This document shows, in pieces, positions 745 through 28,028 of a DNA stretch of 64,000 nucleotides (its first letter is position 1; each line of letters begins with the position of its first letter). The notes below the pieces were generated by a model, which worked only from the letters and a program-made list of their open reading frames with translations, did not search any database and was not told where the DNA came from. The position numbers were made by a program, and so were the translations under genes. Source of the DNA: Octopus vulgaris (Eukaryota); assembly GCA_951406725.2 (NCBI GenBank), contig OX597820.1, positions 70,928,001 through 70,992,000 of the forward strand, written 5' to 3'.

Positions 745-1406
745 CTTTCATTTTGTATTTGTTTCAGTCATTAGACTGCGGTCATGTTGGAGCACCACCT
801 TTAGGAATTATTAGTTGAATGGATTGACCCCCAATACTAATTTTTCTTTTTAAGCCTGGTACTTATTTTATCACTCTCTTTTGCTGAACAGCTAAGTTAA
901 TGGGATGTAAACACACCAACACCAGTTGTCAAGTAGTGGCAGGGACAAACACACACTCACACACATGCTTATGCATATATACATTTACAAACATATATAT
1001 GACAGGCTTCTTTCAGTTCTATAAACATCTCCTTCAAGTAAAACCACCAATAGAAGAGAATATGACCAAAAATTGCGTGTACTCCATCCCATGCAGCTGT
1101 GGTAGGTTATAGAAAGGTGAAACATGCTGCCCCCTCAAAACAAGGGTAGACGAACATCGCAAAGCTGTGACACGAGGAAATATTTATAAACCAGGTATAG
1201 CTGATCATGTATGGAAAAATGGAGACCACCTCCCCCTGTGGGATGAAGTTAAAAAAATAATAGACAGAGAACACCACCGGAAAATACAAAGCACATACAC
1301 TAGGACACAACAACCTCCGAAGCAGACCGAGTGCAGATATGAATAGTGGTTAAGAGCGCTGGCTACTAACCCCAAGATTCCAAGTTCGATTCCAGGAAGT
1401 AACCAA

Positions 1407-1450
<44 letters not shown>

Positions 1451-1745
1451 CAACAACAACATCAAAAAATACATTAGGAATGAGAACCCAGGTTTGAAAT
1501 TTTCCCAAGACACCTGGTGAAGCCTGGAGGGTATATCAGCCAAAACATGTTAACAACAAACAAAATGAGGACAATTATCCATCAAATGTAAATAATGTAG
1601 GCTTCTTACAGTTTCCATCTTCCAAATCCAATCACATGGCTTTGGTCAGCTCAAGGCAATAGTAGAGGACACTTAACCCAAGGTGCCACTCTGTGGGACA
1701 GAACCTGCAACCATGTGCTTAGGAAACAAACACATCTATGCCTGT
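745..1745 (-). mobile_element. SINE A interrupted by the Penelope-like insertion
   Basis: Tail half at 745-1018 and head half at 1599-1745, with TSD. Confidence 0.75.
1019..1598 (+). mobile_element. Penelope-like element 3' fragment: GIY-YIG endonuclease remnant, tRNA-like segment and hammerhead-bearing tail; inserted in a SINE
   Basis: KHLLQVKPPIEENMTKNCVYSIPCSCGRL*KGETCCPLKTRVDEHRKAV...GIADHVW (GIY-YIG: VY...Y-x-GET...R-x-x-EH). 15 bp TSD aggcttctt(t/a)cagtt at 1004-1018 and 1599-1613. Confidence 0.85.

Positions 1746-27776: not shown

Positions 27777-28028
<252 letters not shown>

Follow-up and report, generated by a model that had tools for sequence, protein, structure and literature searches.

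The window analyzed here is a stretch of 64,000 nucleotides from the genome of Octopus vulgaris (contig OX597820.1, positions 70,928,001 to 70,992,000). At 1023-1599 it carries a broken copy of an abundant Penelope-type element (Penelope-like element, PLE) which has a piece of a tRNA gene inside its terminal repeat (pseudo-long terminal repeat, pLTR). This is one single PLE, neither a chance composite nor a separate short interspersed element (SINE). For the family as a whole we favor, with a probability of about 55%, the reading that an autonomous coding PLE acquired a promoter from a tRNA and moved its whole life cycle over to RNA polymerase III (Pol III). Pol III would transcribe the whole coding RNA, a terminator-free mRNA of ~2.9 kb which would be translated without a normal cap, and the many short copies of the family would come from reverse transcription that starts internally, near the 5' end of this RNA. 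Within the literature searched, the element is a previously unreported variant of PLE.

Monomer, protein, and copy number

The family was modeled as a profile of 81 natural copies with 2,646 columns, to which all "model" positions refer. The column majority holds one open reading frame (ORF) of 835 codons, which extends from an ATG just 5' of a hammerhead ribozyme to a stop codon overlapping an A/T octamer. The monomer is ~2.65 kb plus a spacer. Its pLTR contains, in this order, the ORF stop, a TATA-like box, a tRNA(Arg)-like segment (the "head"), an (AAT)n spacer, the start codon, the minimal hammerhead, and the PLE tail. This anatomy is seen in locus L218, where the spacer is followed by the ORF and the next head and tail, and in L159, which starts in the head and proceeds through hammerhead and tail to the ORF start.

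Pfam domain RVT_1 of the reverse transcriptase (RT) matches a natural stretch of 461 amino acids (E 5.6e-10). Pfam GIY-YIG has no match in the PLE family, and the window fragments have no Pfam match at all; the GIY-YIG model weakly matches the relative P0008 (E 0.0098). The assignment of the endonuclease (EN) rests on homologues and on the CxC/EH/DH motifs, which we take to be an endonuclease signature. Nine longer homologues were found, the closest being 68% identical, and the closest relatives (P0001-P0004) are at 57-68%. The majority protein has no CxxC, the Zn-finger-like linker motif between RT and EN, which is present in the control PLE residing in the same genome. Because such a linker motif is a Neptune/Nematis feature by the criterion given in the accessible part of PMC8557442, the family is placed in the Penelope/Poseidon group by this motif criterion, not by a tree.

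Five insertions in a blind sample of 530 kb from the 2.8-Gb genome correspond to roughly 26,000 insertions (8,600-62,000). Their mean divergence is 6-7%, with CpG counted.

A search of the genome with the head returned 423 candidates, and in most of the 30 retrieved loci the head is followed by this spacer and the hammerhead tail, with an inverted partial copy frequently present on the 5' side. When loci were selected by the endonuclease only, 26 of 29 copies were found to continue via a ~90-nt linker into the head, and one more has both linker ends. The head also precedes the ORF in long copies (e.g., L159/L181 and L202). We are practically certain that the head is integral to the PLE; one of the two options in the initial annotation, capture of a Pol III promoter by the terminal repeat of a PLE, is supported by this arrangement. 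A head that moves as a free SINE with other tails was considered and rejected: in the head-selected loci, the PLE tail lies no more than 600 nt away in 27 of 33 head units, and in the remaining ones the spacer is interrupted.

The spacer itself seems to be a target for nested insertions, as other LINE-like elements (long interspersed elements) with (AAT)n ends are nested in it at L063, L064, L084, L043, and L049.

The tRNA-like head and its promoter geometry

Among 31 tRNA-like sequences (30 loci of the genome and one in the window, an incomplete isotype sample), the best global match of the head is tRNA-Arg(TCG) with 49/73 and a z-score of 7.7. The cloverleaf is not kept, with 2/7 pairs in the acceptor stem, 3/5 in the T stem, and poor pairing in the anticodon stem as well. 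In the window (Rfam at gathering threshold) and in L202 1100-1600 (Rfam in E-value mode), the head was not recognized as a tRNA by ARAGORN or Rfam, nor the ribozyme as a hammerhead. Box A and box B, by comparison with the published consensus (PMC7279448), match at 11/11 and 10/11 positions. When the purine at model 2556 is taken as +1, box A lies at +14, box B at +58, and an A/T octamer (8/8), which overlaps the stop codon, at -31/-24. For type-2 promoters with a TATA-like box, the available text of PMC7279448 gives +12 to +22, +54 to +64, and -31/-24, respectively. Boxes that are retained while the stems have decayed form the pattern of a retained promoter, as has been argued for Helenus, and we read the head as a putative promoter in the same way. 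Downstream of 66 other PLE loci, many with little downstream sequence, no A+B box pattern was found, and there was one lone B-like match.

In the majority sequence, box A overlaps a two-codon upstream ORF, ATG-GCG-TAG (model 2568-2576), which could influence translation of the main ORF; in the window this upstream ORF lies at 31699-31691 on the minus strand and is altered.

A sharp 5' boundary at the head

The random sample was too sparse for mapping ends, so that loci selected by the tail were used. From 116 tail-selected loci and the blind loci, 94 head-bearing units were obtained, and 93 remained after one mis-anchored unit had been dropped. The initial annotation had suggested looking for a sharp peak of 5' ends at the head, and such a peak was found: 76 of the 93 units start within model 2553-2582, none in 2531-2552, eight in 2401-2530, and nine further upstream. 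This 5' wall lies ~14 nt before box A within a zone of 30 nt, with no start in the 22 nt upstream of it, and the ORF stop of the majority sequence lies 24 nt before it. The stopping rate per base is 13-fold higher at the wall (p 4e-15). Units had to hold most of the head, which affects the downstream side of the wall and leaves its upstream edge unaffected. Because a near-palindrome at the wall joins many head-to-head insertions, the wall was retested on units that have no adjacent inverted head, and 37 of these 54 units start there (9-fold, p 7e-9). A step in depth of ~4-6x at the head is also seen in contigs from DNA runs of two organisms, using summed word depth, a crude measure.

The wall lies where the start of a type-2 Pol III transcript would belong, and we consider it probable that it is a Pol III start. 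Since short and ORF-linked units show no diagnostic difference and have similar divergence, the wall is taken to mark the 5' end of the RNA of the PLE itself. In long copies which keep the head in their 5' pLTR, the first position is at this wall or within it (2555, 2560, 2565).

Two other sources of these ends were rejected. RNase P-type processing at position +1 of the tRNA, as the main cause of the wall, does not fit the missing acceptor stem or the wall position, which is 6-7 nt upstream; 11 of 127 ends, head-selected loci included, are at the tRNA +1. Hammerhead cleavage does not fit either, as the cleavage site rarely marks an end: of 29 loci selected 3' of the site (L262-L290) one ends within 3 nt of it, and 3 of 30 loci selected by the ORF start end at model 90-96.

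Short copies and ORF-linked copies

Across 74 tests, 118 short units and 58 ORF-linked units showed no diagnostic difference (smallest uncorrected p 0.03), and their divergence is 6.2% and 7.0%, respectively. Because short and ORF-linked copies share one sequence, we see no independent SINE lineage. Of the features that define a tRNA-derived SINE, the A/B-box head at the 5' end is present, and a separate non-autonomous lineage is not borne out. The idea which headed the initial annotation, an independent SINE mobilized by a PLE, therefore finds no support, given that no allele is diagnostic; by the same token the peak at the head, which had been proposed as the sign of such a SINE, is not read in that way.

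Hammerhead, 3' ends, and insertion anatomy

The hammerhead majority of 81 copies is GACAC-CTGATGA-A-GGCTGG-loop-TCAGCC-GAAA-CGTT-GTGTT, so the core reconstructed earlier from the copies in the window was correct. All 11 core positions are kept in 63 of 116 units with an aligned core. The motif fits the description of the minimal hammerhead (min-HHR) and is a predicted minimal type I hammerhead in the pLTR, with a z-score of -1.5 for the fold.

The 3' ends cluster near model 147/153 and at 176-185, ~30 nt apart, and some tails extend to model 190-247, which is inside the ORF. An inverted partner accompanies 44 of 82 long-tailed copies; 42 of the 44 partners are devoid of the tail extension and stop at or before the first 3' end. 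The two 3' ends and the stops of these partners match what is described for the anole PLE in the accessible part of PMC11167929. Target duplications of 10-16 nt flank 34 of 44 copies with a partner, compared to 4 of 38 without and 7 of 400 shuffled pairs. The listed loci are single copies or inverted pairs, and no head-to-tail array of the short unit is evident among them; the genome as a whole was not searched for such arrays.

Scarcity of TTTT on the sense strand

Runs of four or more T terminate transcription by Pol III. The majority sense strand of 2,646 nt has no TTTT and 31 AAAA. The number of TTTT expected is 4.5 upon base shuffling (P 0.0085), 2.9 upon synonymous shuffling (P 0.02), and 5.4 under a third-position null (P 0.004). 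No site has TTTT in more than three of ~32 copies. In 40 decayed natural copies of at least 900 nt, 28 TTTT were observed where 132.6 are expected (0.21), compared to 280 observed and 190.5 expected (1.47) in 66 other PLE loci; these controls are the 66 of 80 PLE loci from metagenome contigs that have a matched span of 900-2,600 nt. AATAAA counts (2 vs. 4.2 in the PLE, 1 vs. 6.1 in the control) were too small and were not used.

A young Neptune-type PLE of the same genome, which is headless and has a similar T content, has 10 TTTT in its ORF of 2,433 nt. It is represented by L349 (C1:202202416-202205712) and L337 (C3:49727262-49730558), with the seed at L101:9340-9660, and has an open frame of at least 811 codons; 1,734 candidates were found, with an identity of 99-100% across 297 nt in at least 39 copies. 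Neither a hammerhead nor a B-box pattern was found in this element.

An unrelated Poseidon-like family (L366, L367, L368, L417) has 0-2 TTTT in its RT region and T-rich pLTRs. ORF-level scarcity of TTTT is thus possible without a tRNA head. An Rfam run on six TTTT-poor controls returned low-complexity noise only.

A proposed Pol III life cycle and its alternatives

Based on these sequence features, the following life cycle may be envisaged. The two boxes and the octamer upstream of them would be the assembly site of TFIIIC and TFIIIB; in a tandem master, this octamer would come from the end of the ORF before it. Meeting no terminator in the monomer, Pol III would continue into the next unit, and RNA that stays uncleaved would be translated from the ATG located 5' of the ribozyme. 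By analogy to the anole PLE, the RT would then initiate at two internal positions, ~125-160 nt into the ORF. A start at the 5'-most site would copy only head, spacer, hammerhead, and tail and would yield the many SINE-like copies of ~300 nt which begin at the start site, whereas a start in the next unit would give 5'-truncated, ORF-bearing copies like the one in the window. Initiation close to the 5' end of a full-length RNA would thereby explain both the wall and the lack of subfamilies.

Several points weigh against this life cycle. A transcript of the PLE has not been observed, and RNA reads of a relative show no start peak at the head. The raw reads fall equally on both mate directions, a strand balance which is expected from copies inside host transcripts or from an unstranded library, so these reads do not test the model; loose read ends at L042:1914, where that reference copy has private variants, were left out of the count. 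Pol III RNA has no cap. The processivity of Pol III has been argued to limit such elements to ~1.3 kb (Kojima 2024, PMC10886601, as far as accessible). No intact or tandem master was found among the copies retrieved, and in two long copies (L163, L172) the 5' pLTR is preceded by sequence from the ORF or linker. The TATA-like box, 28 nt upstream of the start, would suit RNA polymerase II (Pol II) equally, and two control PLEs (L355, L393) have such a box before the hammerhead. With regard to terminators, Markov-1 and Markov-2 nulls, which absorb depletion of T runs, expect 2.6 and 1.5 TTTT (P 0.07 and 0.23), and TTT is depleted too (13 vs. 21). Moreover, 6 of 66 controls have no TTTT in the matched part, one of them over 1.74 kb (L366, with runs of T4-T6 in its pLTR). 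Because TTTT was noticed post hoc, and because the controls are in part redundant and, at ~27-50% protein identity, distant, avoidance of TTTT is suggestive, not conclusive.

Labor might instead be split between the polymerases: the head would drive Pol III on short pLTR RNAs only, giving a SINE-like by-product, the coding RNA would come from Pol II starting upstream or from read-through, and the lack of TTTT would be compositional. We consider this possible but rather unlikely. The wall and the promoter geometry are both explained in this way, and the capping problem does not arise. In a contig run that is putatively RNA the step of head over ORF is ~20x, compared to the 4-6x in DNA, and the TTTT result is not significant under Markov nulls. 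However, it does not predict zero TTTT along a 2.5-kb ORF while other PLEs exceed expectation, and long copies with the head in their 5' pLTR begin at the wall or inside it. Short RNAs would also miss part of the protein-binding region, if the analogy to the anole PLE (PMC11167929, accessible part) holds. It is improbable, in our view, that the wall is simply a Pol II start set by the TATA-like box, the tRNA piece being a passive or differently used relic of an old SINE or tRNA insertion. PLE promoters do sit in the pLTR (PMC6765202, in the text available), and control pLTRs contain TATA-like boxes, but three coincidences would be required: textbook box distances, boxes kept while the stems decayed, and the lack of TTTT.

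The remaining two alternatives concern the short copies and the wall itself. A short unit that forms its own SINE family with its own masters and borrows the PLE proteins would explain why short head-started units are in the majority and have a sharp 5' end and target duplications. We nevertheless judge it very improbable, since no allele separates short from ORF-linked copies of similar age, solo copies have lost the upstream octamer, some tails extend into the ORF, and the sample of 176 units points to short copies being intermixed with ORF-linked pLTRs. Hardly credible is a wall that arises as an artifact of RT stalling or cDNA joining at the near-palindrome before the head and does not reflect an RNA end. 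The many head-to-head insertions joined there are in its favor, but the hairpin has just ~3-4 bp, and the wall stays without an adjacent inverted head, with 25 ends in 2553-2564 compared to 2 in 2501-2552 (p 5e-12). We retain transcription of the whole coding RNA by Pol III as our preferred reading.

Relation to known systems

Parts of the cited reports were available for the following comparisons. The element resembles Penelope/Poseidon PLEs such as Poseidon_Ac of the green anole (Frangieh 2024, PMC11167929; Craig 2021, PMC8557442; Cervera and De la Pena 2014, PMC4209133) in its single frame of RT and C-terminal GIY-YIG, its pLTR, a hammerhead of the minimal, dimer type whose stem II is preceded by an unpaired base, an ORF that starts at the hammerhead, an optional tail of 30 nt (30-40 nt), and inverted 5'-truncated partners. 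In Poseidon_Ac, reverse transcription begins at two internal positions near the start of the ORF; the ORF itself starts in the hammerhead, and insertion does not require cleavage (PMC11167929). Unlike these PLEs, the octopus element has no TTTT on its sense strand, and its pLTR has an A/B-box module of tRNA origin at its 5' end. A term search of the available parts of PMC8557442 and PMC4209133 gave no statement on a tRNA in the pLTR or on Pol III. In the literature searched as a whole, PMC13282606 and PMC8967140 included, no PLE was found whose pLTR derives from a tRNA or which is transcribed by Pol III; Repbase, Dfam, and subscription papers were outside this search, and the family may already be catalogued without this interpretation.

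A promoter derived from a small RNA, kept within a terminal repeat while the RNA itself is non-functional, is known from TRIMp3 elements (Cassandra, Helenus, Ajax; PMC10886601), for which an origin by SINE insertion into the terminal repeat has been proposed. These are non-coding LTR elements of at most ~1.3 kb whose autonomous partners must use Pol II, whereas the promoter described here is in an autonomous coding element, a PLE. TRIMp3 elements have a primer-binding site, a polypurine tract, and target-site duplications of 4-5 bp; this is a coding PLE with target duplications of 10-16 nt.

The analogy to the schistosome repeats Sm-alpha/Sj-alpha (PMC6765202), drawn in the initial annotation for Sm-alpha, holds for the parts list, a Pol III-type promoter and a type I hammerhead in a short repeat, and fails otherwise. 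Sm-alpha is non-coding and propagates from ribozyme-cut tandem multimers, with loss of the promoter upon cleavage, whereas PLE copies start at the promoter, rarely at the cleavage site, and represent the terminal repeat of an element that encodes protein. Animal non-LTR retrozymes (non-autonomous PLE derivatives; bioRxiv 10.64898/2026.07.22.740005, PMC7229834) are likewise short hammerhead units related to PLE pLTRs, but are defined as tandem arrays. The terms tRNA, Pol III, and promoter do not occur in the accessible part of the former report, nor Pol III and SINE in that of the latter.

As a working rule, autonomous retrotransposons use Pol II, and Pol III serves only short non-coding passengers (PMC10886601). 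If our reading is correct, a natural multi-kb message that is made by Pol III and translated would break this rule, and both the translation of uncapped RNA and the relation between promoter and hammerhead in a PLE would become directly testable. With a terminal repeat that spawns tens of thousands of SINE-like copies, the element would also be a missing link that connects PLEs to Sm-alpha and other hammerhead SINEs. Even on a weaker reading, there is a route from a PLE terminal repeat to repeats with a tRNA head and a hammerhead, and the 5' ends of the short PLE copies are usable for mapping start sites from DNA alone.

Copies in the window and neighboring repeats

All parts described in the initial annotation (GIY-YIG remnant, head, AAT spacer, and hammerhead tail) are present on the plus strand at 1023-1599. 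The decayed 3' end of the ORF with the GIY-YIG endonuclease region spans 1023-1346 (model 2149-2483), contains stops and a frameshift, and is 87-89% identical to 39 other scored full-length matches. The head follows at 1344-1404, with the 3' half of box A at 1344-1349 and an intact box B at 1383-1393. That the GIY-YIG remnant runs directly into the head is true of this copy, but is specific to it: a 90-nt deletion with its junction at 1344-1346 (model 2484-2573 missing) removed the stop codon, the TATA-like box, the inferred start site, and the 5' half of box A. The deletion ends meet at a 3-nt microhomology, and none of 29 other endonuclease-selected copies shares the junction. The (AAT/AAC)n spacer, which is variable in length, extends over 1405-1455, and the 3' part of the pLTR over 1456-1599, with the ORF start codon at 1480 and the minimal type I hammerhead, mutated in its core, at 1509-1551.

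The copy ends at 1599, the shorter of the two PLE 3' ends, and not at 1613 as annotated earlier. The adjoining 1600-1640 belongs to a different abundant repeat with ~15 further places in the window.

The two reported recurrences, both on the minus strand, are real. A short copy begins at the 5' wall (model 2554), with its head at 31716-31633 (box A 31698-31688, box B 31654-31644) and its spacer, mutated hammerhead (31555-31510), and tail at 31632-31456. A headless, 5'-truncated copy at 7975-7803 has a mutated hammerhead (7925-7880) and the full tail extension. The hammerhead core is thus intact in none of the three copies in the window. Another short head-and-tail copy of the family lies ~1.1-1.4 kb upstream of the window start (L137:8576-8854).

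A tRNA-Arg(TCT)-like sequence at 27777-27849 on the minus strand (Rfam, 53 bits) has its 5' end replaced by an (AT)n tract and is otherwise near-identical to L431/L432; it is probably a pseudogene.
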